DNA of 64,000 nucleotides. Origin: Gemmatimonadota bacterium (lineage in GTDB: Bacteria > Latescibacterota > UBA2968 > GCA-2709665). A program made the position numbers and the translations under genes. Below, piece by piece: positions 14,961-35,179 of the stretch. The notes below the pieces were generated by a model, which saw nothing but the letters and a program-made list of their open reading frames with translations, ran no database searches and had not been told where the DNA came from. The stretch covers positions 1,618-65,617 of the forward strand of contig JAPPJY010000003.1 in NCBI GenBank assembly GCA_028874335.1. Direction: 5' to 3'. The number at the start of each line of letters is the position of its first letter. Position 1 is the stretch's first letter.

Positions 14961-15039
14961 AGGATTCCCGCGAATGCGTTGGAGTCACGTCGCGAGGGAT
15001 GCTGAACGCGGTCTCTTCGACAACCTGTCAGGAGGGTTT

Positions 15040-16476
15040 ATGCTGCGCACGGCGATCGGCTTTCTGCTTTTCACCCTGTATGCAAATGGCATAATCCCGG
15101 TTGCGGCCGACGAACCGTCGACCGACGGCCGGGCACTCTACGTCCAGTACTGCGCGACCTGTCACGGACAGAACCTGGAGGGCGTCACGGCGCCCAGTCT
15201 GATCGACGGTGTCTGGATCTACGGCGGACGGGGGAACATCGCCCGCAACATCATGTTCGGCATCGTCCAGCAGGGGATGCCCGCGTTCGGAGAAGCGCTC
15301 ACGCGGAAGCAGATCAACGCCATCTCGGCATTCATCCGGGAGGCCGAAAAATCGGCGGGCGCCACAAAACCGCCCATTCCCGACACACTCGACACCTACG
15401 ACTACCGCATCCGCGTGGAACGCTGGGTTGAGGGCCTTCGGCTCCCATGGTCGATCGCGTTCCCGGACGCCGGCACCGCGCTCATCACCGAACGGCCCGG
15501 AAGGCTTCGCGTGGTTAAGAACGGCGTATTGCAACCCGATCCCGTCGCCAATACGCCACCCGTTCTGCACCAGGGACAGGGCGGCCTCATGGATGCGGCC
15601 GTCGATCCCGCCTATCGGGAAAACGGCTGGATCTACCTGTCATACAGCCACGCGCTCAGGGACACGTCCGAGAGCGAGCGACCGCCCGCAATGACGCGCC
15701 TCGTACGGGGGCGAATGAAAGACAACGCCTGGGCCGATCAGCAGGTCGTCTACGAAGCGCCGCACGAGACCTACGGCAGGACCCGCCACCATTACGGGTG
15801 CCGCATCGTCTTCGATCCTGAGGGGTATCTCTATTTCCCCGTCGGAGACCGGGGAATTCCCCGGTACGCACAGGACCTGGGACACCCCGGCGGCAAAATC
15901 CACCGTATCCACCGGGACGGCCGGATTCCCGATGACAACCCCTTTCTAAAACGGGAAGGCGCCCTTCCCAGCATTTACAGCTTCGGCCAGCGAAACCCGC
16001 AGGGCCTCGCCGTGCATCCTGTTACAAGCGCGTTATGGGAGAGCGAGCACGGGCCGATGGGCGGCGATGAGATCAACCTGATAAGGGCCGGGATCAACTA
16101 CGGCTGGCCGACGATCACCTACGGGCGAAACTACAACGGGACGCCTGTATCGGAATTCGAGAGTAAACCCGGCCTGGAGCAACCCGTTCTGTTCTGGCGG
16201 CCCTCCATCGCGGTGTGCGGCATCGACTTCTATCGCGGCGACCTTTTTCCGAAGTGGAAGAACCGCCTGCTCGTGGGCGCTCTTGCATTTGAGGAAGTCC
16301 GCCTCCTCACGATCGAGAACGACCGCGTGATCTACCAGGAAACCATCCTCAAGAATGCCGGCCGCGTGCGCGACGTGGCGAGCGGACCCGACGGGGCCAT
16401 CTACGTCGTTCTGAACAACCCCGGAACCGTACTGCGCCTGACACCGATCACACCTGAAGACCTCAACGAATTCTGA
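15040..16476 (+). CDS. cytochrome c + PQQ-dependent sugar dehydrogenase (GSDH/YliI-like) fusion
   Basis: Signal peptide, CATCH heme motif plus GMP, ITERPGRLR, GQGGL, RNPQG, EHGPMGGDE, NYGWP, RVRDV. Confidence 0.92.
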   Translation: MLRTAIGFLLFTLYANGIIPVAADEPSTDGRALYVQYCATCHGQNLEGVTAPSLIDGVWIYGGRGNIARNIMFGIVQQGMPAFGEALTRKQINAISAFIREAEKSAGATKPPIPDTLDTYDYRIRVERWVEGLRLPWSIAFPDAGTALITERPGRLRVVKNGVLQPDPVANTPPVLHQGQGGLMDAAVDPAYRENGWIYLSYSHALRDTSESERPPAMTRLVRGRMKDNAWADQQVVYEAPHETYGRTRHHYGCRIVFDPEGYLYFPVGDRGIPRYAQDLGHPGGKIHRIHRDGRIPDDNPFLKREGALPSIYSFGQRNPQGLAVHPVTSALWESEHGPMGGDEINLIRAGINYGWPTITYGRNYNGTPVSEFESKPGLEQPVLFWRPSIAVCGIDFYRGDLFPKWKNRLLVGALAFEEVRLLTIENDRVIYQETILKNAGRVRDVASGPDGAIYVVLNNPGTVLRLTPITPEDLNEF

Positions 16477-17480: not shown

Positions 17481-17509
17481 TTGACAGAAGACCCGGATTT
17501 CTCTAACAT
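17481..17509 (+). promoter_or_regulatory. sigma70 promoter of the ABC ATPase gene
   Basis: TTGACA-N17-TAACAT. Confidence 0.65.
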
Positions 17510-17557: not shown

Positions 17558-18346
17558 ATGGCGCAGGCGCCGGACGCCCGATCCGCAGATCAGGAAAACG
17601 AAGACCACATCATCGAGGTGCATGACGTCTGGAAAACCTACTCGATGGGAGACCAGGAAGTCCACGCGCTTCGCGGCGTCTCGTTGAACGTCATCCGGGG
17701 CGAGTACCTCTCCATCATGGGTCCCTCCGGTTCCGGCAAGACAACGCTTTTCAACATGGTTGGCGCCCTGGATCGCCCCTCCAAAGGTAATGTCGTCGTC
17801 AATGCAATCGAAATGGGATCGCTCAGCCAGGCGCAGATCGCCTATCTGCGCTGCCACAATATCGGTTACATTTTCCAGAGCTTCAACCTGATCCCCGTCA
17901 TGACCGCCCTGGAGAACGTCGCGCTCCCCATGGTTTTTTCAGGTATGAAAAAGTCGGAATACGAAGAAAAGGCCGCTCACAAACTCACTCAGGTGGGTCT
18001 GGGTGAACGCCTGAAGCACAACCCTTACGAACTCTCGGGAGGGCAACAGCAGCGCGTGGCCATCGCCCGCGCCATTGCCAATGACCCGGACCTGGTACTG
18101 GCGGATGAACCCACGGGCAACCTGGACCTCAAGACCGGTCAGGAGATCATCGAGTTGCTGCAGAGACTCCAGTCCGACAGCGGTGTCACCATCGTCACGA
18201 ACACGCACGACCACAAGATGCTGGTGGCGTCCGACCGGGTTGTGGACCTGCGGGACGGACAGGTGGAACTGGTGCGGAGGCGGGATGAGATCGACATTCA
18301 GGAAGGACGGATCGAAGGGCTGGATATCGAAGAATTGAGCAACTGA
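17558..18346 (+). CDS. ABC transporter ATP-binding protein (LolD/MacB/FtsE class)
   Basis: [42 protein letters not shown]. Confidence 0.96.
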
Positions 18347-18372
18347 GACACAGCGGGGCCCGACAAGAAACG

Positions 18373-18402
18373 AGGCGTTCGTCTGAACGACGAACGCCTT
18401 TC
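18373..18402. terminator. hairpin between convergent genes
   Basis: AGGCGTTCGTC...GACGAACGCCT followed by T/C-rich sequence. Confidence 0.55.
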
Positions 18403-18446
18403 CTGTATACCGCTTTCCGCAACGACTCGCAAAGCCGATCCGGGAG

Positions 18447-18638
18447 TCACTCCTCGGCCCGGTCGCCGGCCGGGCCGTAGAGCAGGTCGTAGTAACCGTT
18501 CTGCTCGAGACGGCGGATCATTTCGCGAATCATGGCGTCGTCTACGCGAAACATCTCGGCAATCTGTTCGGGCGTGCTGCCGTCCCGCACCAGTTCGATC
18601 AGGCGGTCGCGACTCACAATGAGTTCGGGAACGGCCAT
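18447..18638 (-). CDS. small (63 aa) HTH-like hypothetical protein downstream of tRNA-Phe
   Basis: MAVPELIVSRDRLIELVRDGSTPEQIAEMFRVDDAMIREMIRRLEQNG; GGAG RBS; the longer ORF start overlaps the tRNA and was rejected. Confidence 0.6.
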   Translation of the reverse strand: MAVPELIVSRDRLIELVRDGSTPEQIAEMFRVDDAMIREMIRRLEQNGYYDLLYGPAGDRAEE

Positions 18639-18688
18639 CGACGTGCTCCGGATCCGGGGAACTATCAGGGTGTTATTGTGGAAACAAA

Positions 18689-18764
<76 letters not shown>

Positions 18765-18812
18765 TCCATTCCTCGGGAAAATGCATTGTTCCCGTTGTAC
18801 GACAAAGGCGGG

Positions 18813-18841
18813 AATCTAACAAAACAAGGCACGGATGTCAA
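18813..18841 (-). promoter_or_regulatory. sigma70 promoter of tRNA-Phe
   Basis: TTGACA-N17-TAGATT. Confidence 0.7.
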
Positions 18842-18988
18842 GACAGTTGCGATTGTTTAAAGCGGTATGGCCGTATGGTCAGGTCTGCGAATACGGACCA
18901 CGCGCAACCGGTCCGCCCGACAGTTTGACGCGCATATCCGATCACGTCATCAGGCCGGAACGAAGCCTGCTCGAGAGAGTGCCGATCG

Positions 18989-20995
18989 ATGGCCGGCGCT
19001 GAACGAACAGCCGAAGCAATTGAACCGGACGCGGCTCCCGCCGGGTCAGCGGGCGGGGTCACTGTCCGGTCCGTGGTTTCCGGCCTGTTGCTCGTCCTCG
19101 GCCTGGATGCCCTGGCGGTCCACCTCCGGTACGTCGTACACGGCTCGCTGATGACGTACAGCCATGTGCCGATGGCCATGCTCATCGTGTTTGTGCTGAT
19201 GATCATGGCCGGCGCGCTCCTGGCGCGGATATCCGGATGGAAGCTTGCGCCGGCGGAATGGCACGTCATTCTGGCCATGGGCGTCGTCGGCGCGGCTGTT
19301 CCCGGTTTCGGTCTGAGCGGCTATCTGCTTGGGTACATCGCATCCCCGTACTATTTCGCGACCGAAGTCAACGAATGGCATATCTACCTGCATCCGTACA
19401 TCAACCCCTGGCTGATCCCTTCAGACGAAGACAAGGCCGTCACGTGGTTCTTTGAAGGCGCTCCCAAAGGCGCGCAGGTCCCGTGGGATGCCTGGGTGCT
19501 TCCACTGTTGTGGTGGACCACGTTCATCGTCGCGGCATTCGTGGTCCTCGGCTGCGTGGCCGTCATCTTTCGCAGACAATGGGTACAGAACGAACGACTG
19601 GCATTTCCGGCGATGGCGCCCCTGATTCACATGGCGGAAGAACCCGGCAGTGGAAGATTCGCACTCCCTGATTTCACGAAGAACTACCTGTTCTGGATCG
19701 GCTTCGGGCTGGCCTTCGGAATGATCGCCTGGAACTGCATCAACTATTTCCTCCCCGGCTTTCCACGGTTTCCGGTCTATCGGGGCCGTTGGCTCTGGAT
19801 CGACCGTCAGCATCCGCCCGCCTATTTCTTCATCGGTCTGTTTACCATCTTCTTCTCCTATTTCGCCAGCCTAGACGTTCTGTTCAGCATCTGGTTCTTC
19901 GACCTGCTGTTCATTTCCGAAGGCGGCTGGCTGCACCGCCGGGGGTTTACGGCCATATCGCCGTACTATTACCGCGGCGTCTATTACTGGCAGACCAAGG
20001 GCGCATTCGCCATGCTGGCCGCCTCGGTCTTCTGGGTAGGCAGACGCCACATCAGGGACGTGTTCCGCAAGGCATGGAACCGGGACCATCCGATGGACGA
20101 CCGGGACGAACCGCTCTCCAGCCGTACGGCCGTCGTCGCCATGCTCGTCGGGCTCGCGTTCATGTGGCTCTGGCTCTGGCGCATCGGCTTCGACCCGCTT
20201 CTGGCGGCCCTGCTCCTTCCGGCGGTCATCTTCACGTATGTCGGCCTGGCCAAGATTCTCGCGGAGACCGGCATGCCGTACACCAACGTGCCGGCGGGTC
20301 CGTGGGGTCTCGTATCGCCTTTCATCGGGTCATCGACCGTCAACGAAAGCACGCGGGTCGCCCTCCGGTTCGCGTCCAGGATCACCTCCCACTTCAAGGG
20401 GCTCTTCCTGCCGGCCCTTGCGCACGCCGGGCGGGTTGCGGAGGGCGTCCGGGGCGGCCGGCGGCGTCTTGCGTATGCCGTCGTCCTCGCATTTATGGTC
20501 AGTTGGATCGCGAGTGTGCTGCTCACGATCCAGCTGGGATACCGGGACGGCGCCTACAATTTCAACTCCTGGGAAATCGTGCGCGCGGGGCCCAAGCATT
20601 TCGATGGCACCGCGACTTCCGTCAAGAACTTCCTGACAAAACCCCCGGATCCGCCCGTCTACCGCGAACATCCCGACTATATGGTGTTTTTCGGCCTGGG
20701 CGGCCTGGCCACGCTCCTGCTCATTTTTATGCGTCACCGTTTCGTATGGTGGCCGTTGCATCCTGTCGGACTGGCCATTTCGGGTTCGTACCTGGCCCGG
20801 CGAACCAGCTTGACGATATTGCTGGCATGGCTGGTCAAACTGGTCATGCTAAAGATGGGCGGGCCTTCCGTATACAGGAAATCGCGCCCCCTGTTCATCG
20901 GCCTGCTCGCCGGATATATACTCGGTGTCGCCCTCTCGGCCTTTATAGACGTCCTGTGGTTCCCGGAACGGGGCCACAGCGTTCACCGCTTCTGA
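18989..20995 (+). CDS. polytopic membrane protein, DUF6785/DUF6784-like (OPT-superfamily-like putative transporter)
   Basis: Many TM segments; VPWDAWVLPL, RRQWVQNERLAFP, RFVWWPLHPVG, GGPSVYRKSRPLFIGL. Confidence 0.75.
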   Translation: MAGAERTAEAIEPDAAPAGSAGGVTVRSVVSGLLLVLGLDALAVHLRYVVHGSLMTYSHVPMAMLIVFVLMIMAGALLARISGWKLAPAEWHVILAMGVVGAAVPGFGLSGYLLGYIASPYYFATEVNEWHIYLHPYINPWLIPSDEDKAVTWFFEGAPKGAQVPWDAWVLPLLWWTTFIVAAFVVLGCVAVIFRRQWVQNERLAFPAMAPLIHMAEEPGSGRFALPDFTKNYLFWIGFGLAFGMIAWNCINYFLPGFPRFPVYRGRWLWIDRQHPPAYFFIGLFTIFFSYFASLDVLFSIWFFDLLFISEGGWLHRRGFTAISPYYYRGVYYWQTKGAFAMLAASVFWVGRRHIRDVFRKAWNRDHPMDDRDEPLSSRTAVVAMLVGLAFMWLWLWRIGFDPLLAALLLPAVIFTYVGLAKILAETGMPYTNVPAGPWGLVSPFIGSSTVNESTRVALRFASRITSHFKGLFLPALAHAGRVAEGVRGGRRRLAYAVVLAFMVSWIASVLLTIQLGYRDGAYNFNSWEIVRAGPKHFDGTATSVKNFLTKPPDPPVYREHPDYMVFFGLGGLATLLLIFMRHRFVWWPLHPVGLAISGSYLARRTSLTILLAWLVKLVMLKMGGPSVYRKSRPLFIGLLAGYILGVALSAFIDVLWFPERGHSVHRF

Positions 20996-21082
20996 TCGGC
21001 GTCCGGCGGCGAATGACCGGGGTCGGAAACCGGGTACCCGCAACCGTAGCGGCACTGCAGAAGCCTTGATCCGGATGACTCA

Positions 21083-24000
21083 ATGAAAACCCGTCCACGC
21101 ATCGGTCTTGCACTGGCGCTTCTCTTCGCCGCCGGGGCCTTCGCCGGCCTTGCGGTGGGACCGGAACGCGTCAACCCCTACCTGGCCGCAATCCTCGGAC
21201 TCCGTGCGCCCGTTGCTCCACCGTCCCCTTCCGTTCCGGAAGCGAACGCCACTTCGGTTCGCGTACTCGACACCGTATCGGACGCCGGCGTCATGTCGCA
21301 CGTTGCCGGCTTTACGGAACACCGGTCGCGAGTTCCCGGATACCCCGGACACGCCGCGGCCGCCGAGTACATCCGGCGCAGTTTCGAGAGCGCCGGTCTC
21401 CGGGACGTCCGCGCCGAGCCGTTCGACGTCACCTCGCCCGTAGACAAGGGCGGCAGCCTGAGGCTGTTGCGGGACAATGTCACGTTTCCCATCCACGCAA
21501 TCTGGCCGAACCTCGTCAAAACCTCCACGCTGCCGCGCGAAGGGGTCCGCACGCGGTTGATATACGGCGCGACCGGGGAATTTGCCGACTTCAACGGTCA
21601 TGCGCTCGAAGGCGCGGCCGTTCTCATGGAATTCAATACCCGGAACAACTGGCTGAACGCGGCCACGCTGGGGGCGGGACAAGTCATCTTCATCGAACCG
21701 GATTCGACTTTCTATACCGAAGCCGAGCAGAAATTCCTGCAGGTGCCCAACAGCGTGGAACGATTCTGGATCGACAAAGCGTCGGGGCAGGCTCTGAAGG
21801 CAATGCTCGAACAACGCGGCGAACTTGAAATCGAACTGCACGCGAGAATGGAGTGGGAGAAACACACCGCCCACAATATTCTGGGCTTCCTTCCGGGCTC
21901 GGATCCGATCCTGAAGGAACAGATCGTCGTGATCAATGCGTACTACGACGCCATGTCCGTCGTCCCGGCACTGGCGCCCGGCGCCGAGATGGCCGGCGGC
22001 GCCGTCGCCCTGATGGAACTGGTCAACTACTTCAAACGATATCCCCCGGGGCGCACCGTGCTCTTTCTGGCCACTTCGGCCCACCACCTGGGCTTTCGCG
22101 GCATCTGCGATTTCCTGGGCCGCCACGCCAGAAAGGAGAGGCATTTCGCGGCCCTGATGACCGACCCCATCGACATCCGACTCTTCATCGGCCTGGACCT
22201 GTCGAGCCAGACCGCTCAAATCGGCGTCTGGAACAGTACGCGCAACTTCTACTACAATCGGTTCTTCACACCTTTCGGAAAGAAGTTCGTCCGCATCTCG
22301 CAGGCGATCGCACCCGCCTTCGGCCTCGACCCCGATCAGGCGCTGCTGGACGGCATCAATCCCACGGGCGGAATGACCTGGGATATGTTCATCCCCGGTG
22401 CAAACCTGAAGACCGACGGCGAAGTCGTCCTCGAAGCCGGCACGCTCGCCCTGTCCCTGGTCACGCTGAACGATGCGCGTTTCCGGGTCGATACGCCCCT
22501 GGACCGGCCGGAAGGGGTAAACTTCGATAATCTCGCAAAACAGGTCCGCCTGATTACGGGTGTGCTCGACATTGCCCTGAACGACCCAACGCTCATCCCT
22601 GATTATCGACTCAATCCCGATGACAGGATGCGCGGTCTGAAGGGATTCGTACGTACCTTTCCCAGGCGCAGCATCGTACCCGACCGGCCCAAGCCGGGCG
22701 CCATCGCCGCGCTCAGGATGGGCATCGACAAATCGGTCAAGGGCGTCCGGCGCATCTATTACGACCTTGCCGACGAAAACGGTGAATTCTACATGCCGGG
22801 AATCGCCGAACGCCGCGTCTCCGTCAGCGCCTACTTTCAGGACCCGGAGACCGGTGAGATCACGTACGCACCAAATTACGGGCAGCAGGCGCGGATCTAC
22901 CGCGGCGACTTCGACATGGACTGGTGGATCTCCAAGAGAAACATCATCCTCTTTCCCTGTATCGCCACCGACTTCTACGATACCGTCGATCCGCGTTTCC
23001 TCACCAAGCTCTCCCAGATCAGCGTCTACGGTAGCGGCAACGTCACGCCACAGGAATACGGATACGCGATCGGCTTCGGCCCGACGGAACCCGTGGGCAC
23101 CCTGTTCACGCGTCCGGGCGAGAGAATCAAGGTCGCGATGAGGGCCGGCGGCGTCGCGGCGGGCTCCGGCGACATCGGCATCCGCTTCCTGTTGCTGAAT
23201 GCGACCAGCGCCGAGAGCGAGGAAATCGCAAGGGGCACGGGTTATCCCACGCTCACCCACGGATCGTTTGCGCGCACCTCCTTTCTGGCCGCGCGGGACA
23301 TGTGGACCCTGAACGAAGCCCGGAAGCAGGAGATGCAGAAATACGCCATCGAAAACCAGCGTCTGAACATGCTGCACGGCCAGGCCCGCCTCCACCTGGA
23401 CATGGCCGAAGCCGCGATGTCGCAGAGTCGCTGGGACGTCTTCATGAAGCATACCCGCGCGGCCCTCGGCATCGAATCGCGCGCCTATCCGGACGTCAAG
23501 GACACGCAGAACGACGTGGTGCGCGGCGTCGTCTTCTTCATGGCCCTGGTCATCCCATGCGCATTTTTCACAGAACGCCTCATCTTCACTGCCGTGGATA
23601 TCCGGAGGCAGATCGCGGGATTTATCGGTATTTTCGTTCTCATCTGGGTTTTCCTTTCGAACGTGCATCCGGCGTTCGAGATCTCCAATCCCCTGGTCGT
23701 GCTGCTCGCCTTCGTCATTCTCGCGCTGGCGGTGTTCGTGATTTCACTCGTTTTCAATCGGTTCAACGAAACCATGCGCCGGTTACGGGTCCCGGAAGTG
23801 CGCTTGCATGAAACCGACGTGGGTCGAATCTCCGCCTCCCTGGCGGCCTTTCAGCTCGGCATCGCAAACATGAAACGCCGCAAATTGCGCACGGCGCTTA
23901 CGTTCACCACGCTCCTGCTCCTCACGTTTACGGTACTCTCGTTTACGTCCATCACAACGGCTCTCGAATTTCGCCGGATTCCCCTGGGCACCGAGGGTCC

Positions 24001-25618
24001 GTACCCCGGAATGCTCATCCGCAGCAAGTTCTGGGGTCCGCTGGAAGACGTCGTCTACGATTATGCCGTCACGCATTTCCGGGAATCCGCGATAACGGCC
24101 CCTCGAAGCTGGTACTATACGCGGGAGAAAAAGATCATCCCCGTCGAGTCCGAAAACAGCTCCACACACGTACTCGGCGTTCTGGGAATGACGCCTGAGG
24201 AGGCGGACGTGACCGGCGTCCACAAGACACTGAAGGTCGGCAGGTGGTTCCGTCCGGGAGAATCCGCGTGCATACTGCCGGAAAAGATAGCGGAACTCCT
24301 CGGCGTGGACCCGGGCCGGCTTGAAGCGTCACACGTCCGGATATTCGGCGAGTCGTTGCCGGTGATCGGCCTGATCGACGCCGGGGCGTTCAGCGAGCTC
24401 AAGGACCTCGATGAGGAACCCCTCAGTCCCGCTGACTTCAAGCTTACCGATGAGGAAGCCATCGAACAGATGACCACCCAGGAAACGCGGGAAAAACAGG
24501 GCCTGGAACAACCTGAAGTCGAAATCATGCCCTTCGAGCACATCAACCCCGACGACATCCTGATCGTCCCGTACGCGTTCCTGCGCCAGGTGGGCAGCCC
24601 GCTCCAGTCGGTCGCCCTCCGGTTCGACGCCGGATCAGACGTGGAGAGCAACGTCAAGGAGCTTCTGTCCAGGCTCTCGGTTGTACTGTTCGCGGGTCTT
24701 CCGGAAGCGGACGGTCGCGTCAACGTCTCGATTTTCAGTTCCCTTGGCGACACGTCGAGACGCGGGATGAGCGATCTCTTTATTCCCATCCTCATCGCCT
24801 CGCTCATCGTCCTGAATACCATGATGGGTTCCGTGTACGAACGGTTTCGGGAAATCGGCGTCTATTCCGCGGTGGGCCTGGCGCCGGTCCACGTCGCTTT
24901 TCTGTTTATCGCGGAAGCCTGCGTCTACGCCGTCCTCGGCACGGTGAGCGGCTACATGCTGGGCCAGGCCGTTGCGAAGCTGCTTCTCTGGCAGGGCTGG
25001 CTCTCGGGCGTCACGGTCAACTATTCCGCCCAGTCGGCCGTTGTTTCGTCCGCCCTGGTCATGGCCGTCGTCATCCTGTCAACCCTCTATCCTGCCAGGC
25101 AGGCATCCCTGATGGCGGTGCCGGACGTATCCCGCCGCTGGAAAATCCCCGAGCCGGAAGGCGACGACTGGCGTTTCGAATTCCCGTTTACGGTTGGCGG
25201 AAACGATGTATTCGGGCTCTGTGTGTTCCTAACGGACTACTTTGATTCCCACAGCGGCGAAGCGATGGGGGCGTTCTACACGGACGGTGCCCATCTGTAC
25301 GGGAAGGGCGGCGCCGGTGAGAGCGGATACGCAATCCGCACGACCCTGTGGCTGGCGCCCTTCGATCTGGGCGTCAGCGAGGAGCTTCGCTTCGAGGCGG
25401 AACCCACCGGCCAATTCGATATCTATACCCTCACGCTCACCCTCAGGCGGCGCTCCGGAGAAGTGGCTTCATGGCGGCGGGTCAACCAGGGTTTCATGAA
25501 TACCCTGCGCAAGCAGTTTCTCATCTGGAGAACCGTGGACCCGGCCGAGAAAGCGGCGTACAGGGAAAAAGGCATGCGGATGCTCGTCTCGGACGAACCG
25601 GAGGCGAAACCGGCCTGA
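21083..25618 (+). CDS. giant membrane protein: M28-peptidase-like/PA ectodomain fused to an FtsX/MacB-like permease
   Basis: SRVPGYPG, NILGFLPG, AYYD..VPALAPGA, RTVLFLATSAHHLG (M28-like); RRKLRTALT, VLNTMMGSVYERFREIGVYSAVGL, FIAEA (FtsX). Confidence 0.85.
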   Translation: MKTRPRIGLALALLFAAGAFAGLAVGPERVNPYLAAILGLRAPVAPPSPSVPEANATSVRVLDTVSDAGVMSHVAGFTEHRSRVPGYPGHAAAAEYIRRSFESAGLRDVRAEPFDVTSPVDKGGSLRLLRDNVTFPIHAIWPNLVKTSTLPREGVRTRLIYGATGEFADFNGHALEGAAVLMEFNTRNNWLNAATLGAGQVIFIEPDSTFYTEAEQKFLQVPNSVERFWIDKASGQALKAMLEQRGELEIELHARMEWEKHTAHNILGFLPGSDPILKEQIVVINAYYDAMSVVPALAPGAEMAGGAVALMELVNYFKRYPPGRTVLFLATSAHHLGFRGICDFLGRHARKERHFAALMTDPIDIRLFIGLDLSSQTAQIGVWNSTRNFYYNRFFTPFGKKFVRISQAIAPAFGLDPDQALLDGINPTGGMTWDMFIPGANLKTDGEVVLEAGTLALSLVTLNDARFRVDTPLDRPEGVNFDNLAKQVRLITGVLDIALNDPTLIPDYRLNPDDRMRGLKGFVRTFPRRSIVPDRPKPGAIAALRMGIDKSVKGVRRIYYDLADENGEFYMPGIAERRVSVSAYFQDPETGEITYAPNYGQQARIYRGDFDMDWWISKRNIILFPCIATDFYDTVDPRFLTKLSQISVYGSGNVTPQEYGYAIGFGPTEPVGTLFTRPGERIKVAMRAGGVAAGSGDIGIRFLLLNATSAESEEIARGTGYPTLTHGSFARTSFLAARDMWTLNEARKQEMQKYAIENQRLNMLHGQARLHLDMAEAAMSQSRWDVFMKHTRAALGIESRAYPDVKDTQNDVVRGVVFFMALVIPCAFFTERLIFTAVDIRRQIAGFIGIFVLIWVFLSNVHPAFEISNPLVVLLAFVILALAVFVISLVFNRFNETMRRLRVPEVRLHETDVGRISASLAAFQLGIANMKRRKLRTALTFTTLLLLTFTVLSFTSITTALEFRRIPLGTEGPYPGMLIRSKFWGPLEDVVYDYAVTHFRESAITAPRSWYYTREKKIIPVESENSSTHVLGVLGMTPEEADVTGVHKTLKVGRWFRPGESACILPEKIAELLGVDPGRLEASHVRIFGESLPVIGLIDAGAFSELKDLDEEPLSPADFKLTDEEAIEQMTTQETREKQGLEQPEVEIMPFEHINPDDILIVPYAFLRQVGSPLQSVALRFDAGSDVESNVKELLSRLSVVLFAGLPEADGRVNVSIFSSLGDTSRRGMSDLFIPILIASLIVLNTMMGSVYERFREIGVYSAVGLAPVHVAFLFIAEACVYAVLGTVSGYMLGQAVAKLLLWQGWLSGVTVNYSAQSAVVSSALVMAVVILSTLYPARQASLMAVPDVSRRWKIPEPEGDDWRFEFPFTVGGNDVFGLCVFLTDYFDSHSGEAMGAFYTDGAHLYGKGGAGESGYAIRTTLWLAPFDLGVSEELRFEAEPTGQFDIYTLTLTLRRRSGEVASWRRVNQGFMNTLRKQFLIWRTVDPAEKAAYREKGMRMLVSDEPEAKPA

Positions 25619-25796
25619 AAGACGACCCGGCGAAGCTGAACTGATTCGTTTTCCAGACATCGCGATACGGAATTTGGCTTTGCAAAATCACTCTTTGATT
25701 GTATTTTTCAGGCCTTTACCCGTAGCGCGGCTTCGCTTTGCTCGGCCGGAACCAATCAGGTGACAGGAAACTCGCGCGGCCGTTTGATGAATCAAT

Positions 25797-25905
25797 CACT
25801 CCCCCCTTGAGGGGGAGTCGCAGAAGCCGAGCCGACCCCTGAGACGCCGCGCTGAGCTTGTCGAAGCGTTGTCGAAGGGCCGGCGACAGCTGATGCGGTG
25901 GGGGG
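25797..25905. repeat. nested palindromic REP-like element
   Basis: ACTCCCCCCTTGAGGGGGAGT hairpin...GCTGATGCGGTGGGGGG enclosing CCCTGAG[..CGCTGAGCTTGTCGAAGCG]TTGTCGAAGGG. Confidence 0.6.
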
Positions 25906-26000
25906 ATTGCAACAACATACCGAATGCAAGCAGCATGATCAGACATGTACGAAAATGCACCGTAGTCTCACTGTAAGACTTTAAAACGCATCGACCTGCC

Positions 26001-28421
26001 ATGGCCTTTCTCGATCGAATTCGCAGGCGGAAATCCAATCCGTACCAGGAAATCGAAGAGTACCGGGATCTGCTTGATGTCCCCAAGGAGTTCGAAGAGG
26101 GCTTCAACTCCAAGACCATTCTCGGTGCACTCTTCGTTTCCGTCATTATGGTTCCGGGCAACATCTACCTGGAACTCATGGTGGGACATTCCGTCGGCGC
26201 CGCCGCCCAGTGGGTGACCATCATCCTGTTTCTGGAACTGGCCAAGCGCTCGTTCACCGTGTTGAAGAAGCAGGAGCTCTACCTGCTCTATTATGTCACC
26301 AGCGCCCTGGTCGCCCGCGAAACCGGAATGTTCGAAGGCCTGCTCTGGCAGCAATACTACGTCCAGTCTCCCGCAGCGAAGCAGTTCGGCATCTCCCACC
26401 TCATCCCCCGATGGTGGGCGCCCCCGCCCGATTCACCCGCGCTGATCGATCGGACCTTTCTCCATCAGGACTGGCTGCTGCCTATCTCCCTGCTCGTTTT
26501 GGGAATGATCATGGGGCGCATCCAGTGGTTCACCGCCAGTTACGTACTCTTCCGCATCACCTCCGACTACGAGCGCCTGCCGTTTCCGTTCGCGCCGATC
26601 AACGCGCAGGGCGCTATGGCGCTTGCCGAAGAGAGCAGCGGCCAGTACAGCTGGCGTTGGCGGGTCTTCAGCATCGGCGCCGTGATCGGCGTGGTATTCG
26701 GCTCCGTCTACGTGGCTGTGCCCGCCATTACCGGCGCGTTCATGGAGAGCCCGCTTCAGCTCATCCCCATCCCATGGGTGGATTTTACCCAGTACACGGG
26801 ATATTTCCTGCCGGCCACGCCGCTGGGCTTCACACTGCACCTGGCCCCCATCTTCGCCGGGCTGCTGGCGCCCTTCTGGGCTGTCATGGGCGCATTCATC
26901 GGCGTCGCCATCCACACCGCGGCGGGCCCCATCCTTTATTCCTACGGGTACATGCCCAACTGGTACATGGGCATGGATACCATCATGACCCACTTCGTCA
27001 CGGGCATCGATTTCTGGATGAGCTTTGGGATCGGCATCACCTTCGCCATCGCAATCATTGGATTCTACCAGGTCTGGACCGGCGTCCGAACCGCGCGTGT
27101 GGAGAAAAAAGAAAAGGGAAGCTGGACGCCGCCGCCCGGCCGGGGAGACTTCCGGATCTGGATCTGCATCGTGCTCTTCTGTCTTGCGAGCCTCTATACC
27201 ATAATCCTTGCCAAGGTCCTCTTCCCTGACCTTGTAAGCACCGTTCTGCTCATCTTCTTTTTCGTCTTCGCGTTCGTCTATACACCGTTGATCTCCTTCG
27301 TCAACGCCCGGCTGGACGGGCTGGTCGGACAGAACGTCAATATCCCCTATATCAGGGAAGCCACGATCTTTCTGAGCGGGTTCAGGGGTATCGAAATCTG
27401 GTTTGTGCCCTTCCCCCTGGCCAACTGGGGCGCTCAGGCCGAGACGTTCCGTCAGATCGAACTCACGGGCTCGAAATTCACCGGAATCCTGAAGGCTGAG
27501 GTCTTCATGATCCCGCTGATCCTTCTGACCAGTTTCATGTACTGGTCCTATATCTGGAAGCTGGCGCCCATTCCCTCTTCCTCCTACCCCTACGTCCAGA
27601 TGATGTGGCCGCTACGGGCGCTCCAGAGCAGCGTCTGGTACACCGGCACCATGCAGGGTGAGGTGGAGCACGACCCGTCCTCCGGAACCGTATCGTTCCA
27701 GCCGAGCAATCTGCCCGACGGCAACTGGTGGTACTGGCGCGCCCGCGCCTCGGCCGACGCGCACATCGATGACCATGAACAACGCGCTTACGGACCGTGG
27801 TCCCGCGTTGGGTATTTCTATACGAACTTCAAGAGTCCCGAAAAGCCGCTCGTGCCGCCGCTTCCGGTGGACCGGTCGGCGCCGGACATTTCCGAAGCGT
27901 TGCGGTTGGGCCTGCCTTCGGCGCCGGCGTTGCGGAGTCCGGATGACGGAAGCCACGCGGACAACCCCAACCCCAACCTGGTTGTGCTCGCCGCGCGGGA
28001 CCCGGAGGGGCGGGATCTTGTCTATCAGTTCGAAGTGGATCAGGTGCCCTCCTTCGACGGTTCCTTTCTGCAGAGTTCGGACGACGAGCCGATCCTGTTC
28101 GAAGCCATCAAGCCGGTCGTGATCGCCATCGGACTCGTCGTCGGCCTGGTCTCGTTCGTGGTTCTGTCCGTCCTGGGCCTGCCGGTCCTGCTCATCTTCG
28201 GATACATACGGAGTCTGACGAGCATTCCCCACGTGATGATCACCGAGATCATCGGTGCGCTCCTCGCGCGGTACTATTTCTGGAAGCGTTTCGGAAGACA
28301 GCAATGGCGCCTCTACGCGGCGGTGTTGTATGTCGGATTCTCGGTGGGCATGTCCCTGGTGGGCATGGCCTCCGTCTCCATTGCAATGATACAAAAGGCC
28401 GTCTCGGTACTGTTGTTCTGA
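26001..28421 (+). CDS. OPT-like 'peptide transporter' membrane protein with an inserted extracytoplasmic Fn3-like domain
   Basis: EYRDLL..P..FEEGF, AAQWVTIILF, SDYERLPFPFAP, IPYIREA, APIPSSSYPY; hydrophilic insert near the C-terminus. Confidence 0.75.
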   Translation: MAFLDRIRRRKSNPYQEIEEYRDLLDVPKEFEEGFNSKTILGALFVSVIMVPGNIYLELMVGHSVGAAAQWVTIILFLELAKRSFTVLKKQELYLLYYVTSALVARETGMFEGLLWQQYYVQSPAAKQFGISHLIPRWWAPPPDSPALIDRTFLHQDWLLPISLLVLGMIMGRIQWFTASYVLFRITSDYERLPFPFAPINAQGAMALAEESSGQYSWRWRVFSIGAVIGVVFGSVYVAVPAITGAFMESPLQLIPIPWVDFTQYTGYFLPATPLGFTLHLAPIFAGLLAPFWAVMGAFIGVAIHTAAGPILYSYGYMPNWYMGMDTIMTHFVTGIDFWMSFGIGITFAIAIIGFYQVWTGVRTARVEKKEKGSWTPPPGRGDFRIWICIVLFCLASLYTIILAKVLFPDLVSTVLLIFFFVFAFVYTPLISFVNARLDGLVGQNVNIPYIREATIFLSGFRGIEIWFVPFPLANWGAQAETFRQIELTGSKFTGILKAEVFMIPLILLTSFMYWSYIWKLAPIPSSSYPYVQMMWPLRALQSSVWYTGTMQGEVEHDPSSGTVSFQPSNLPDGNWWYWRARASADAHIDDHEQRAYGPWSRVGYFYTNFKSPEKPLVPPLPVDRSAPDISEALRLGLPSAPALRSPDDGSHADNPNPNLVVLAARDPEGRDLVYQFEVDQVPSFDGSFLQSSDDEPILFEAIKPVVIAIGLVVGLVSFVVLSVLGLPVLLIFGYIRSLTSIPHVMITEIIGALLARYYFWKRFGRQQWRLYAAVLYVGFSVGMSLVGMASVSIAMIQKAVSVLLF

Positions 28422-28508: not shown

Positions 28509-29066
28509 ATGTCAGCCGCGATCGGCATGATCGAAGTCGAAGGCGTCGCCGGGATTATTCTCGCGTCGGACGCCGCCTGCAAGGCCGCCGGCGTGGACCT
28601 TCTGGGCTGGGAGTCCATCGGCGGCTTCACCACCGTCTTTCTTGGCGGATCCATCAGCAGGGTGGCGACGGCGCTCAAGAGTGGCGAAGAAGCGGCCAGA
28701 GAGGTTGCGGGGCACGTCGTGGCGGCGCCGATGACACACCCCGAACCCGCCTGCCGGGAATACGTTTCAAATGAAATCGCAACGGAGCGGCGCACGCCGA
28801 CCGGCGCGCTGGGTCTGATCGAGACGAGAGGATACGGCGCGCACGTCACCGCCAACGACAATATGGTGAAGGCGGCCGACGTCCGGGTCTTCAACGTGCT
28901 CACCGTACACAACCGGGTGGTCTGCTCCCTTATACTTGGGGACGTGGCTTCCGTGACCGAGGCCCTGCCCGTGGGTCGCGCGAGCATCGAGACAGGAGAG
29001 AATTTCCTCGGCGCCGCCCTCATCCCCAAGCCCCTGCCCGACGTCCTGTGGGCATTCGGCCCCTGA
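28509..29066 (+). CDS. bacterial microcompartment shell protein, two BMC domains
   Basis: AIGMIEV...DAACKAA and ALGLIETRG...DNMVKAADV...GDVASV. Confidence 0.92.
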   Translation: MSAAIGMIEVEGVAGIILASDAACKAAGVDLLGWESIGGFTTVFLGGSISRVATALKSGEEAAREVAGHVVAAPMTHPEPACREYVSNEIATERRTPTGALGLIETRGYGAHVTANDNMVKAADVRVFNVLTVHNRVVCSLILGDVASVTEALPVGRASIETGENFLGAALIPKPLPDVLWAFGP

Positions 29067-30235
29067 GCGCCGTCGTGTCCGCACGAAATCATGCCCTGGG
29101 GATTCTGGAGACCCGCGGCATGACCGCGCTTGTCGCCGCCCTGGACGCCATGCTGAAAACCGTGGACGTCAGGGTCCTGGGGCGTCACGGCGTTGGATCC
29201 GGCTGGCTGACCGTCGTGATCGAAGGCGTCGTTTCGGACGTGGAGGCCGCCATTCGGATCGGGCGATCCGAGGCCGAGAACCACGGCGAGTTGATCAGCG
29301 CCGATGTGATCGCCGGCCCGGCCCCGGGCGCCCTCGCGTCCATGCCGCACATGGCGGGCGCGGGCACGTCGAAACCGGTCGGCTCGCTGGCGATGGGCAT
29401 CCTCGAAACACGCGGAATGGTACCCCTCATCCGCGGCGCCGACGCCATGATCAAGAGCGCACCCGTCCACGTCGCCGGCTGGACTTCCATTGGCGGCGCG
29501 CTGGTTCATCTCGTGGTCCGGGGCGATATTTCATCGGTCCAGACTGCCCTGCAAGCCGGAAGAGCGTGCGCGGATGAAGTCGGGGAAGTCTACGCGACCC
29601 TGGCAATTCCCAGCCCTGAAGCGGGTATCGCCCCGCTGCTTCCGGATCCGCCGAATTCAGACGGGCGCGAGGAAGACGCCGGGGCGCTCGGTATTCTTGA
29701 AACAACGGGTTACGTGTCCGCGGTCGGCGGATCGGACGCGATGGTCAAAGCGGCCGACGTCGACCTCGTGCGCCTCGTCATCGCCAGCGGAGGCCGGGTG
29801 GACGCGCTGGTGAAAGGCGATCTCGACGCGGTCCAGGCGGCCGTGGAAGCCGGTATCGATGGCGCGCAGGAGGCCGGTGAACTGAATGCATCCTGTGTCG
29901 TTTCCCGCCCGTCTTCCGAAATCATGGCCTGCTTCGGCGGGAACACCGTCAGGAATACGTCAGGCTTGCATCAGGCGATGGGACTGATCGAAACGCGCAG
30001 CACCGTGGCCCTGGTCAAAGCCGTGGATCAGATGTTGAAGTCCGCGGACGTGGAATACGAGGGCCGGTACAAAGTGGGGTACTTTCTCACGGCAAGCGTC
30101 GTCCGGGGAGACGTCGGCGCGGTACGTGCCGCCCTGAATGTCGGCGCCGGGGAAGCGGAGAGGTACGGCGAACTGGTGTCTGCACACCTTATACCCCATC
30201 CCTATCCGGCGCTGGAAGAAAGGCTGATCCACTGA
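29048..30235 (+). CDS. bacterial microcompartment shell protein, four BMC domains (possibly the frameshift continuation of the upstream ORF)
   Basis: Four repeats of (A)(L/M)G(I/L)(L/I)ET...D(A/Q)M(L/I/V)K...G(D/V)...; no convincing RBS at GTG 29048 or 29075. Confidence 0.92.
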   Translation: MGIRPLSAVVSARNHALGILETRGMTALVAALDAMLKTVDVRVLGRHGVGSGWLTVVIEGVVSDVEAAIRIGRSEAENHGELISADVIAGPAPGALASMPHMAGAGTSKPVGSLAMGILETRGMVPLIRGADAMIKSAPVHVAGWTSIGGALVHLVVRGDISSVQTALQAGRACADEVGEVYATLAIPSPEAGIAPLLPDPPNSDGREEDAGALGILETTGYVSAVGGSDAMVKAADVDLVRLVIASGGRVDALVKGDLDAVQAAVEAGIDGAQEAGELNASCVVSRPSSEIMACFGGNTVRNTSGLHQAMGLIETRSTVALVKAVDQMLKSADVEYEGRYKVGYFLTASVVRGDVGAVRAALNVGAGEAERYGELVSAHLIPHPYPALEERLIH

Positions 30236-30263
30236 TCGATCGCTGACCTCCTGGGAATGATCG

Positions 30264-31433
30264 ATGATCCGTATTGACGATGCGGTTGTTACCGAACAAT
30301 TGCTCAAGGACAGACTGGGCGCTGAGCGGGAAGTCGAAATCTGCCCGCGGGCAAAGCTGACGCCGCTGGCGCTGGACTATCTGGCGGCCAACCGGGTCCA
30401 GGTATCCAGAAGAGAGGCGGCGGCCGCCGGTCCGCGGACTTCAGCGCCGGCCGCCCGTCGGAAATCCGGCGAACGGAAAGAATTCAAGGGCATCTTCTGC
30501 CCCAATATCGTCATTTTCGACAGCAATGACCGGATCAACTACGCGGAAATGGAGCGATATGTCAACTGGCTCATCGAAGCCGGCATCCACGGGTTGTATC
30601 CCAATGGAAGTACGGGCGAATTCGTGCGACTTTCCAGCGACGAGCGCAAGGAGGTCGTGCGCCTGGTCACGAACGTCAACCGGGGGCGCGTGCCCGTTCT
30701 GGCCGGCGCGAGCGAAGCCAACCTCCGCGACGTGCTCAGAATGAGCGAATACTACGCCGGCATCGACGTCGACGCCATTTCTCTCGTACCCCCGTACTAT
30801 TACGAGATCTCGGACACCAGCCTCTTCGAGTACTTCGCTGAGATCGCGAGACAGACGCCTCTCGACGTCCTTTTATACAATATCCCCCAGTTCACGCAGG
30901 AACTCACGCTGGACATCATGGAACAGTTGCTGCCCTTCGAGCGAATCATGGGTACCAAAGATTCCAGCCGGGATATGCCGCGGCTGATCAACACCATGCA
31001 TCGGCTGCGGGCGCAGCGCCCAGACTACGTGGTCCTGGTCGGCTGCGAGGAAATCCTGTGTCCATCCATTATGATGGGCGCCAGCGGGGGCACGATCGCG
31101 ACCTCCGGCATCATTCCCGAGGTCATTGTGGATATCTATGAAAAGACGCTTGCCGGCGACCTCGAGCGTGCACGCGGCATGCAATGCCGCATCCTGGACC
31201 TCATCAACCTGATGCTGCTGGGTGTGAACTTTCCGGAGGGATTCAAAACCGGTGTGGCCGTGCGCGGATTCGACGTCGGACCTCCGCGGCAGGCCATGAG
31301 CGACGAGGAAAAGGAATATCTCCTCAAGCTCGAGTCCCAGATCAGCTGCATCCTCAAGGATATGGGTTACGACGTGAATGGTGCGCGGGCGTGTCCCGTA
31401 ACCGACCTGCCGCCAATTGTCGACCGTACCTGA
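30264..31433 (+). CDS. DapA/NAL-family aldolase/dehydratase with BMC-associated N-terminal domain
   Basis: NGSTGEF, VPPYY, LYNIP, GTKDSS (Schiff-base Lys); N-terminal VVTEQLL...KLTPLALDY module. Confidence 0.9.
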   Translation: MIRIDDAVVTEQLLKDRLGAEREVEICPRAKLTPLALDYLAANRVQVSRREAAAAGPRTSAPAARRKSGERKEFKGIFCPNIVIFDSNDRINYAEMERYVNWLIEAGIHGLYPNGSTGEFVRLSSDERKEVVRLVTNVNRGRVPVLAGASEANLRDVLRMSEYYAGIDVDAISLVPPYYYEISDTSLFEYFAEIARQTPLDVLLYNIPQFTQELTLDIMEQLLPFERIMGTKDSSRDMPRLINTMHRLRAQRPDYVVLVGCEEILCPSIMMGASGGTIATSGIIPEVIVDIYEKTLAGDLERARGMQCRILDLINLMLLGVNFPEGFKTGVAVRGFDVGPPRQAMSDEEKEYLLKLESQISCILKDMGYDVNGARACPVTDLPPIVDRT

Positions 31434-31512
31434 CGCGACGGGTTGTTCCGCGGGGGCAATACCCGGAACCCGCCATGATTACATCAACTGAAGTCCTTAA
31501 CGGAGAACCTCC

Positions 31513-32457
31513 ATGGCTGAAAACGCGCAGCGGCACAACCTCGTGGACCCGTTCAACCTGGATGCCGGCGACGGCTACGTCTGGCTGAAAGGCAACCTCC
31601 ACTCCCACACGACGAACTCCGACGGCAGGGCGTCGCCCCAGGAACGTCTGGACGGCTACGTGAGCCAGGGGTACGACTTCCTTTGTCTCTCGGACCACTA
31701 CCGGATCACCCGGATCGATTCCGTGGATTGTCCGGACGACTTCGTGCTCATTCAGGGCGCCGAACTGCATCCGGACAATCCGTTCGGCGGACAGAAACAC
31801 CATTTTCTCTGCCTGAACATCCACGAGGACCTGGACTCGGAGAACATGCCGCCCCAGCACGTGATCGACGCGGTTCAGGAACAGGGGGGCAGCACGTGGC
31901 TTGCCCACCCGTACTGGAGTTCGGTCAACATCCTGAGGGACACCGTTCCGCTCACGGGATTTGCCGGCGTGGAGGTATTCAACACAACGTGCCGACGCGC
32001 GGGCCGGGGGGAATCCGGCGTTCATTGGGACGACTGGATGGACCTGGAGAACAGGCTGTATCCCGCCCTGGCCAACGACGACTCCCACGCCCTCGAATCG
32101 GATAATCACGATACCTATGGGGGCTGGACGATGGTACGCGTGAAGGACCGGTCTCCAGCGGCCATTCTCGACGCGCTCGAACGGGGCGCGAGCTATTCGA
32201 GCACCGGCGCCCAGATTCGGAACATCACCCTGCGAAGAAGCGACGAGGAGAAACGGCCGGTCGAGGCCGCCGTCGAATGCTCCGAGGCCAGGTGTATCCT
32301 GGCCGTTTGCGATACGTTCGGAACCGAATACAGGAATTCCGGCAAATCCTTTACGAGCGCCACGTTCAACCTGCGGCCGGGCGCACGCTGGGTACGTTTC
32401 GAAGTGATCGGAACGGACGGCTCGAAAGCCTGGTCCAACCCGTTCGACCTCACCTGA
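31513..32457 (+). CDS. PHP-domain metallohydrolase (CehA/McbA-like)
   Basis: KGNLHSHTTNSDG, SDH, GAELH, AHPYW, ANDDSH, AWSNP. Confidence 0.88.
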   Translation: MAENAQRHNLVDPFNLDAGDGYVWLKGNLHSHTTNSDGRASPQERLDGYVSQGYDFLCLSDHYRITRIDSVDCPDDFVLIQGAELHPDNPFGGQKHHFLCLNIHEDLDSENMPPQHVIDAVQEQGGSTWLAHPYWSSVNILRDTVPLTGFAGVEVFNTTCRRAGRGESGVHWDDWMDLENRLYPALANDDSHALESDNHDTYGGWTMVRVKDRSPAAILDALERGASYSSTGAQIRNITLRRSDEEKRPVEAAVECSEARCILAVCDTFGTEYRNSGKSFTSATFNLRPGARWVRFEVIGTDGSKAWSNPFDLT

Positions 32458-32470
32458 GGCTGGCGTCGCG

Positions 32471-33208: not shown

Positions 33209-33221
33209 AGGGACCTCCACC

Positions 33222-34190: not shown

Positions 34191-34271
34191 CTGCAGGTGA
34201 CGCCGGGCCGGGAAAATGCCGGCTTCCGACCCCGATCGGCCAGCCCATGCATGTCGTAATCCGGAGGTTTT

Positions 34272-35168: not shown

Positions 35169-35179
35169 GGCGAAATTTC

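Follow-up and report, generated by a model that had tools for sequence, protein, structure and literature searches.

The question raised by the locus described here is what a group of neighbouring genes does that encodes a MacB-type permease fused to a large ectodomain, two polytopic membrane proteins and an ATP-binding cassette (ABC) ATPase, and whether these proteins work together. The locus lies in a window of 64,000 nucleotides (nt) of contig JAPPJY010000003.1, in which position 1 is the first letter of the stretch. The original prediction for this DNA had proposed that the ATPase powers the fusion protein and that the latter in turn loads or gates a heteromer formed by both polytopic carriers. 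An open reading frame (ORF) check confirmed the four genes, all on the plus strand and inside 11 kb; the names given in the following lines are used throughout.

17558-18346, plus strand: MacB/FtsE-class ABC ATPase of 262 amino acids (aa), the window ATPase, called type A (PF00005)
18989-20995, plus strand: DUF6785+DUF6784 polytopic protein of 668 aa (PF20581, PF20580)
21083-25618, plus strand: the 1511-aa fusion, called FtsXfus, with an FtsX domain and about eight transmembrane (TM) helices, counted by hydropathy
26001-28421, plus strand: the 806-aa polytopic protein, called P806, a predicted divergent member of the OPT superfamily (profile comparison)

Our preferred reading, held tentatively, is that the three genes at 18989-28421 could well form the core of a conserved envelope system that has not been described before and is centred on a type VII (MacB/FtsX-type) ABC permease. 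Its conserved unit is FtsXfus plus P806, the DUF6785 gene being a frequent yet dispensable neighbour. This unit emerges from the comparison of two sets of loci, which are mutually related so that their counts are not independent: the best 80 of 576 relatives, with one genome per species scanned, all of them Latescibacterota or metagenome-assembled genomes labelled so, and 79 usable metagenome loci with a GC content of 0.30-0.68, found by a scan seeded with distant relatives. In the genome loci with enough flanking sequence P806 lies immediately 3' of FtsXfus in 52 of 78 and DUF6785 immediately 5' in 49 of 72. At least one adjoining OPT-like gene is present in 62 of the 72 genome loci having both flanks, both carrier genes are present in 35 of them, and in 8 of the remaining 10 a DUF6785 gene is located a few kb upstream. 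Most of the metagenome loci (62/79) have a full-length FtsXfus ORF including the M28-like part described below; P806 is found directly 3' of it in 49 of 64, DUF6785 takes this place in 8 more, and an OPT-like gene is present in all 35 loci having both flanks. In five complete genomes each of the 11 P806-family genes is situated just 3' of one of 14 FtsXfus genes, ten of them at 0.5 kb or less and one at 1.1 kb, and over the six genomes checked the two adjoin in 13 of 13 cases. The pairing persists over at least five old FtsXfus paralogue groups and over the whole GC range of 0.30-0.68. The link between FtsXfus and P806 is thus very strong, and the co-occurrence of FtsXfus with OPT-like genes elsewhere, on which the original prediction had staked its case, goes far beyond chance in genomes and metagenomes alike. 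The FtsXfus system occurs in nearly all Latescibacterota sampled, and relatives are found under the labels Armatimonadota, Omnitrophota, Planctomycetota and Thermodesulfobacteriota.

FtsXfus itself reads, on the basis of profile matches and hydropathy, as a MacB-type module that is complete and carries a large ectodomain, in agreement with what had first been proposed for the 1511-aa protein. Its parts are the following.

Residues 5-28: N-terminal signal-anchor helix (hydropathy)
Residues ~29-811: ectodomain of about 780 aa (hydropathy)
Residues ~59-352, nt 21257-22138, plus strand: PA and M28-like domain with non-canonical metal-ligand positions
Residues ~353-811, nt 22139-23515, plus strand: remaining ectodomain, of no recognisable family
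Residues 812-893, nt 23516-23761, plus strand: three extra TM helices (hydropathy)
Residues 894-1339, nt 23762-25099, plus strand: linker, MacB-type TM1, periplasmic core domain and TM2-4
Residues 894-936: basic cytoplasmic linker (hydropathy)
Residues 937-960: MacB-type TM1 (hydropathy)
Residues 961-1229: periplasmic loop between TM1 and TM2 (hydropathy)
Residues 1230-1338: TM2-4 (hydropathy)
Residues 1340-1511, nt 25100-25615, plus strand: conserved C-terminal domain, predicted to be cytoplasmic, of no assigned family

A single FtsX domain (PF02687) is detected at residues 1233-1342 with 48.9 bits against a cut-off of 25.5. When a 16-member FtsXfus profile was compared with solved structures, residues 1157-1345 matched MacB, YtrF, LolC and LolF, and residues 59-352 matched PA/M28 aminopeptidases (2ek8, 1.6e-15; YwaD, 6hc6, 5.7e-12), with weaker matches to the transferrin receptor and nicalin; residues 500-810 and 1345-1511 gave nothing significant in searches of PDB sequences. 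PF04389 (M28), PF12704 (MacB_PCD) and PF02687 are annotated in FtsXfus homologues, PF04389 also in paralogues. In the window protein itself PF04389 has no match at E<=0.01, and PF12704 is undetected although it is annotated in many homologues at 54-68% identity. The topology of four TM helices, a large TM1-TM2 loop and a basic linker in the cytoplasm fits the protein by its hydropathy map only. Conservation is highest at residues 790-965, comprising the three extra TM helices with an invariant FFxERL, and in the coupling loop between TM2 and TM3, in which ERFxEIG..SxVGLAPxH is invariant. We also considered whether the extra TM helices descend from a first FtsX repeat that has degenerated, which is unsupported (hhalign 0.3%). 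Among the shorter homologues of the C-terminal half, which are mostly contig-end fragments, there is no clear example of an unfused form; one of them, P0275, starts at the equivalent of residue 792.

The canonical co-catalytic zinc ligands and catalytic Glu of M28 peptidases are H, D, E-E, D and H. The aligned positions in FtsXfus are Y/F, E (D in two sequences), H-[H/F/Y], D and D, and both zinc-binding His and the Glu-Glu pair are replaced in 21 of 21 family members. Since these positions are substituted in all of the 21 sequences, the M28-like domain is best read as a pseudo-peptidase. FtsXfus differs in its ligand positions from the PA-M28 aminopeptidases of Aneurinibacillus (2ek8) and B. 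subtilis (YwaD), with which residues 59-352 are collinear over the PA insert and the M28 core; transferrin receptor and nicalin, likewise among its matches, are M28 homologues which are not peptidases.

The two polytopic proteins were predicted to be distant paralogues of an OPT-like fold sharing an ERL(A/P)FP motif. The motif was recovered in both, as NERLAFP in the 668-aa protein, where E202 and P207 are invariant in 22 paralogues, and as YERLPFP in P806, where L193, P194 and P196 are invariant in 23 homologues; it is conserved in both families.

nt 19592-19609, plus strand: ERLAFP motif of the 668-aa protein
nt 26571-26588, plus strand: ERLPFP motif of P806
nt 27663-28100, residues ~555-700, plus strand: non-membrane insert of P806, about 145 aa, found in the forms of about 800 aa and absent from those of about 660 aa

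The 668-aa protein matches PF20581 (DUF6785; 3e-98, 329.9 bits) followed by PF20580 (DUF6784; 7.5e-22, 77.9 bits), and both domains are found in 42 of 42 aligned relatives. Pfam and NCBIfam yield no match for P806 even at E<=10, and the OPT family PF03169 matches neither protein at that threshold, its gathering score not being reached. Comparison of the 668-aa and 806-aa proteins by BLASTP was not significant, cross-searches with hidden Markov models (HMMs) among the P806, DUF6785 and OPT families gave zero common matches, and profile comparisons among the three families were weak with shallow alignments (33%, 5% and 1.8%) and gave 56%, 17% and 5% with alignments of medium depth, plus 62% in the A5-A6 comparison. 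The decisive alignment of the P806 family contains 123 sequences, 44 members and 79 full-length representatives from a library of 1.84 billion proteins. Compared with the canonical OPT proteins of the phylum it gave an hhalign probability of 98.2% (E 2.7e-14, 546 columns, full-length), with the P806 ERLPFP superposed on the OPT motif LPYPEG, and compared with DUF6785 98.4-98.5% (E about 1e-15, 1.4e-15; about 580 columns); column-shuffled and reversed controls stayed at 0.1-0.3%. Just one of the 123 sequences matches the OPT HMM and none the DUF6785 HMM, so that the alignment is no mixture. Individually, PF03169 is matched by 2 of 44 P806-family and 1 of 42 DUF6785 members (E<=0.01), a DUF6785+DUF6784 protein of a related genome exceeds the PF03169 cut-off in a collinear match (33.3 bits), and one NCBI record in the P806 family bears the name OPT/YSL. 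By these profile comparisons P806 is classed as a remote member of the OPT superfamily. The 668-aa DUF6785 protein is likewise assigned to it, via P806; the direct DUF6785-OPT comparison is non-significant (1-5%) and the connection runs through P806, so this link is transitive.

P806 thus resembles the OPT/YSL proteins (PF03169; HvYS1, 7wsr) in a full-length collinear profile match and in the common L-P-[FY]-P motif region. It differs from them in the insert of about 145 aa and in its position beside an FtsX-type gene in every genome checked, and both P806 and the 668-aa protein fall below the Pfam OPT threshold. Neither the P806 nor the DUF6785 profile significantly matches 7wsr or any other PDB sequence, whereas the phylum's canonical OPT proteins reach 2.2e-22 with 7wsr. 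The source genome contains no canonical OPT gene. The P806 family comprises 1212 representative clusters in the protein library, and the protein atlas returned solely unnamed clusters. For one P806-family gene (L125:2323-4380) the tools disagree: a six-frame genome search gave 35.1 bits (E 7e-9) to Pfam OPT, while hmmscan of the translated protein reports no family at E<=0.01.

The original prediction further joined both carriers in a heteromer. The source genome contains 22 DUF6785 genes, four FtsXfus genes and two P806-type genes, both of the latter just downstream of an FtsXfus gene. The four FtsXfus loci are arranged as DUF6785-FtsXfus-P806 (C88, the window), DUF6785-FtsXfus (C2), FtsXfus-P806-like (C22) and DUF6785-FtsXfus-DUF6785 (C75). 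Eighteen of the 22 DUF6785 genes have no FtsX gene nearby and lie among catabolic genes, including those for amidohydrolase, aminotransferase, PhyH dioxygenase, GFO/IDH/MocA, sulfatase, heparinase II/III and homocysteine S-methyltransferase. This context is as expected for self-sufficient uptake carriers, and the family looks like a main substrate-uptake carrier class of this sponge-associated lineage. With so many DUF6785 genes standing alone and both carrier genes present in only about half of the genome loci, as counted above, a heteromer is not indicated. A grouping of the FtsXfus-adjacent DUF6785 genes in one clade was considered and dropped, with at least seven changes among 42 tree rows. 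DUF6785 paralogues are often in tandem (e.g. L015:7812-11897, L017:6050-15397 and L026:118-10197).

The solo DUF6785 genes bear on an explanation without any complex, in which FtsXfus would be an anchored peptide-binding or weak peptidase-like protein, P806 and the DUF6785 proteins self-sufficient OPT-type secondary carriers, and the FtsX module independent or a mere anchor, the genes being kept together by a common nutrient-scavenging (peptide-like) route. OPT family members are known as carriers needing no ABC partner, and amino-acid-type catabolic genes (DHDPS-like, PhyH, DAP-epimerase-like and MR/MLE) follow the cluster in the window, as this explanation would have it. We nevertheless regard it as unlikely: P806 adjoins FtsXfus in each of the 13 cases from six genomes, adjacency over such a range of GC content exceeds the usual effect of a shared pathway, the FtsX coupling loop is invariant, and outside the window's genus the neighbours of the module are mostly housekeeping and not catabolic genes. 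The downstream bacterial microcompartment (BMC) and amino-acid-type catabolic genes are conserved solely in close relatives and do not define the substrate of the module.

Some loci contain a more extended operon. In the metagenome locus L197 the order is FtsXfus, P806, a gene called c8, a gene for a 127-aa protein, a short FtsX gene and an ATPase gene, the gaps between the six genes being 43, 19, -4, -4 and 19 nt, and this order recurs in L137, L169, L198, L202, L205 and L206. The c8 protein is soluble-looking and of no known family (294-330 aa in the loci, 361 aa in the source genome), with no Pfam-bearing atlas cluster and no PDB relative. Its gene lies directly 3' of P806 in 15/80 genome loci and 15/80 metagenome loci, follows P806 in many genomes of families f3 and f13, and is found about 1.2 kb ahead of the ATPase gene of the short FtsX pair (type B) in five genomes (G010, G016, G021, G036 and G040). 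The short FtsX and type B genes are found by FtsXfus in eight metagenome loci, in most cases behind c8, in the same order in seven and divergent in L164; in L079 and L087 they come directly after FtsXfus-P806, and in L087 an FtsY gene precedes FtsXfus. In the source genome these genes are dispersed, c8 being on contig C11 and the pair on C32, where type B follows the short FtsX gene downstream of an S41 peptidase gene. The small ORF between c8 and the short FtsX gene is conserved at 127-132 aa (L197:5305-7309 and L137:11167-13175) and in L197 overlaps both by 4 nt. In genus g16 many c8 matches (e.g. G139:C1:2018956-2019891) contain in-frame TGA codons, one or two each, around query positions 28-45; these stretches probably lie upstream of the real start.

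A phyletic profile of 151 genomes, also among the checks proposed with the original prediction, is consistent with one system. FtsXfus is present in 138 genomes, P806 in 137 and c8 in 132, where it is single-copy, and all three are missing from the 13 sampled genomes of family f10. The orthologue of the short FtsX is absent from five nearly complete f10 genomes, where ATPase matches reach 44-50% identity at best. In the other 13 families of the phylum FtsXfus, P806, c8, the short FtsX and its ATPase are present.

The window ATPase has the ABC domain PF00005 (3.4e-32, 112.3 bits, cut-off 25). The top NCBIfam rows for it are LolD (231.9 bits, cut-off 307.75), YbbA, DarD, FtsE (214.4 bits, cut-off 264.85) and MacB, none of which reaches its equivalog cut-off. 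Around its gene the following features were found.

17481-17509, plus strand: sigma-70-like promoter match, 10/12, 5' of the ATPase gene (consensus match only)
18373-18399: GC-rich hairpin with an 11-bp stem, directly after the ATPase stop codon
18689-18764, minus strand: tRNA-Phe(GAA) gene, between the ATPase gene and the three-gene cluster
18841-18813, minus strand: promoter-like site of the tRNA-Phe gene

Sigma-70-like consensus matches in the region number two, against 3.1 expected, and the terminator score of the hairpin applies to the tRNA transcript of the minus strand. The hairpin, the tRNA gene on the opposite strand and the promoter-like sites together make the ATPase gene a unit of its own. 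Its distance from FtsXfus varies among genomes as follows.

2.6-4 kb: 14 of 14 genomes of the genus, and also G078, G138, G023 and G080
7-10 kb: five genomes
16-57 kb: six genomes
Unlinked: other genomes

In five complete relatives the type A orthologues (77-82% identity) are situated 10, 45, 137-900, 200 and 826 kb from FtsXfus, and none is beside a permease gene; across genomes type A keeps a divergent xylose-isomerase-like TIM-barrel gene, not a permease gene, as its neighbour. An ABC ATPase of any sort is found within 10 kb in only 13 of the 80 related genome loci, and in the source genome only the window copy has a MacB-class ATPase within 15 kb. Among the 150 matches listed, the type A rows (identity of at least 71%) come from families f1, f2, f4, f6, f11 and f13 only. 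All 64 genomes of family f3 contain FtsXfus; 60 of them have a single ATPase match each, about 60% identical among the matches listed. Type A is 62% identical to the type B ATPase of C32. In the ATPase tree type A forms a clade (89/96) within an unresolved group which also holds type B and the operon ATPases, and the other MacB-type ATPases of the source genome lie far from it. Type A is best regarded as a duplicate, specific to its lineage, of the FtsE-like ATPase of the system; it probably works with the same FtsX-type permeases, though it is no conserved part of the module, and a link to the three-gene cluster is plausible. Of the ATPase partner first proposed, then, the recurrence of an FtsE-like ATPase in the operons of some lineages has held up, and the window ATPase as a conserved neighbour has not.

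Several observations weigh against the preferred reading and have to be set beside the linkage. The ATPase is set apart from the cluster by its own promoter-like site, the hairpin and then the opposite-strand tRNA gene, and across genomes type A lies anywhere from 2.6 kb to more than 800 kb from FtsXfus; family f3 has no type A row among the 150 matches listed. The many orphan ADOP-like FtsX permeases of the source genome offer alternative clients for the ATPase. The pair of short FtsX and ATPase genes is beside FtsXfus in just 8 of 79 metagenome and 2 of 80 genome loci, and may be the organism's cell-division FtsEX, given its neighbours S41 (C32) and FtsY (L087). The phyletic profile amounts to a single split, f10 against the rest, and is statistically weak for this reason, and the OPT assignment of DUF6785 is, as described, an indirect one.

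The window ATPase may belong to other permeases, as a shared energiser of the orphan ADOP-like ones or a spare FtsE that is near FtsXfus by inherited synteny only. The source genome holds 54 FtsX-domain matches, many of them in orphan permeases of about 800 aa with no adjoining ATPase, the constant neighbour of type A is the TIM-barrel gene, and its distance to FtsXfus rises stepwise with divergence. This assignment is on the unlikely side, as the nearest relatives of type A are ATPases inside FtsXfus operons, and in g1, g3, G023 and G080 its gene precedes FtsXfus by 2.6-4 kb on the same strand, ahead of the three-gene cluster. Contig C26 of the source genome carries a tandem array of about 14 ADOP-like genes for duplicated FtsX permeases of about 800 aa (C26:81519-128728, minus strand), which includes a single MacB-type ATPase gene (C26:84036-84704).

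The same evidence makes the unaltered original model, with the window ATPase powering FtsXfus and FtsXfus acting on a heteromer of the 668-aa and 806-aa carriers, very improbable. It could draw on the closeness of the four genes on one strand, on an identical gene order in 14 of 14 genomes of the genus plus a few others and on the position of the ATPase in a clade of operon-encoded FtsE-like ATPases. It is confronted with an ATPase gene that forms a separate unit and is unlinked in many genomes or, in f3, lacking among the matches listed, with two carriers found together in a minority of loci, and with an adjacent DUF6785 gene gained or lost at least seven times on the tree. Family f3 and the loci with one carrier suggest that the module works without the type A ATPase or without one of the carriers.

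For the preferred reading, of a conserved envelope system around FtsXfus and P806, the following mechanism can be proposed. A dimer of an FtsE-type ATPase would drive FtsXfus, possibly paired with the short FtsX in a LolCDE-like heterodimer; the conformational change would pass to the pseudo-peptidase ectodomain, which would capture or hand over a peptide-like ligand; and P806, plus the DUF6785 carrier where present, would act as the membrane conduit, for uptake or export. In its fullest form P806 would be non-autonomous, the conduit of a six-part machine (FtsXfus, the short FtsX, a dimer of the FtsE-like ATPase, c8, the protein of about 130 aa and P806) in which ATP-driven mechanotransmission through the dead M28 domain loads or gates an OPT-fold channel. 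Such a machine would unite primary (ABC) and secondary-carrier (OPT) architecture in a hybrid for which no precedent is described; taken as a whole, this specific assembly is unlikely.

Type VII ABC systems such as MacB, LolCDE and FtsEX do mechanical work, termed mechanotransmission, on periplasmic adaptors, chaperones and hydrolase activators. FtsXfus is like them in its FtsX module of four TM helices, the periplasmic domain between TM1 and TM2 and the conserved coupling loop, in the MacB_PCD and FtsX Pfam domains of its homologues, and in having its FtsE/LolD-like ATPase as a separate protein. It is unlike them in that the chain adds the PA/M28-like ectodomain of about 780 aa, three extra TM helices and a C-terminal domain of 170 aa, and in that its conserved partner is a predicted OPT-superfamily membrane protein instead of a MacA, LolA or EnvC. 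With the ADOP-type orphan permeases, abundant in the same genome, it has in common an FtsX-type module with no adjacent ATPase gene; it differs from them in having one recognisable FtsX domain, not two, and in its ectodomain and partners.

The closest parallel is FtsEX, which acts through EnvC, whose M23 LytM domain, in the words of the source (PMC7668044), 'lacks catalytic residues' yet activates amidases. By this precedent an FtsX-type module can act through a peptidase fold without catalytic residues, and FtsXfus would likewise couple such a module to a metallopeptidase fold with replaced ligands. The dead fold is, in distinction to EnvC, M28/PA and not M23/LytM, it is fused and not bound by a coiled coil, and there is no evident amidase partner.

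By analogy, the locus might encode an envelope-remodelling regulator, a fused counterpart of FtsEX-EnvC in which the dead M28-like domain activates or recruits a periplasmic hydrolase and P806 moves the released peptides in or out. Besides the EnvC precedent, the short FtsX and FtsE-like pair with S41 peptidase and FtsY genes as neighbours would fit this role, as would the near-universal presence of the system in the phylum and the single-copy state of c8. We consider it quite improbable, as across 160 loci the module has no conserved peptidoglycan hydrolase or amidase gene beside it and genomes carry three to five FtsXfus paralogues, which is odd for a division factor. M28 is moreover an exopeptidase fold for which, to our knowledge, no activator role is known.

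In the literature searched, supplements excluded, we found no mention of DUF6785/DUF6784 and no description of the FtsX-M28-OPT combination, and nothing relevant on Latescibacter, sponges and OPT together. The parts come from known families; what appears undescribed, as had been supposed at the outset, is how they are put together and that a type VII ABC permease is paired with an OPT-fold partner. If the preferred reading is correct, an integral OPT-fold membrane protein would be a new type of partner for type VII ABC systems, and the M28-like domain a second dead metallopeptidase fold used as a moving part after that of EnvC. The locus also provides a first context for three uncharacterised families, DUF6785/DUF6784, the P806 family and c8, and DUF6785 proteins may rank as a class among the major uptake carriers of these sponge-associated organisms.

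As to the source, near-identical homologues carry the label Candidatus Latescibacterota, and the sequence is present in sponge and marine metagenome runs, among which no RNA run was listed. No solute-binding protein is found among the called genes at 12208-46715, as the original prediction had it for the cluster. It was also right in placing a BMC locus just downstream on the same strand, the shell genes beginning at 28509. The BMC locus (28509-39410) contains two BMC shell genes and genes for a DHDPS-family protein, a 314-aa protein of no assigned family, a PhyH dioxygenase, a Zn-dependent dehydrogenase, a DAP-epimerase-like protein and two MR/MLE enolase-superfamily proteins. The cargo candidates are unusual and suggest the catabolism of an amino-acid derivative.

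The spacer between FtsXfus and P806 has the following features.

25619-26000: spacer of 382 nt between the FtsXfus and P806 genes
25799-25822: hairpin CTCCCCCC..GGGGGGAG (C6/G6-rich) within this spacer

The spacer measures about 130 nt in relatives 86-98% identical (L030, L032-L034 and L053) and about 390 nt in L031; given its hairpin, the 382-nt form may contain an inserted small element. TPR-repeat proteins recur beside FtsXfus clusters of several paralogue groups, at C22 (L019:14420-16572), L079:8308-9830, C2 (L014:15162-16172), L055:6735-7793 and L069:1372-7219, accompanied in C22 and L079 by a Laminin_G_3 lectin-like protein; the window copy of FtsXfus has no TPR-repeat gene beside it. 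Upstream of the ATPase, at 14974-16476 of the window, an N-terminal cytochrome c domain is fused to a glucose/sorbosone dehydrogenase (GSDH) domain.

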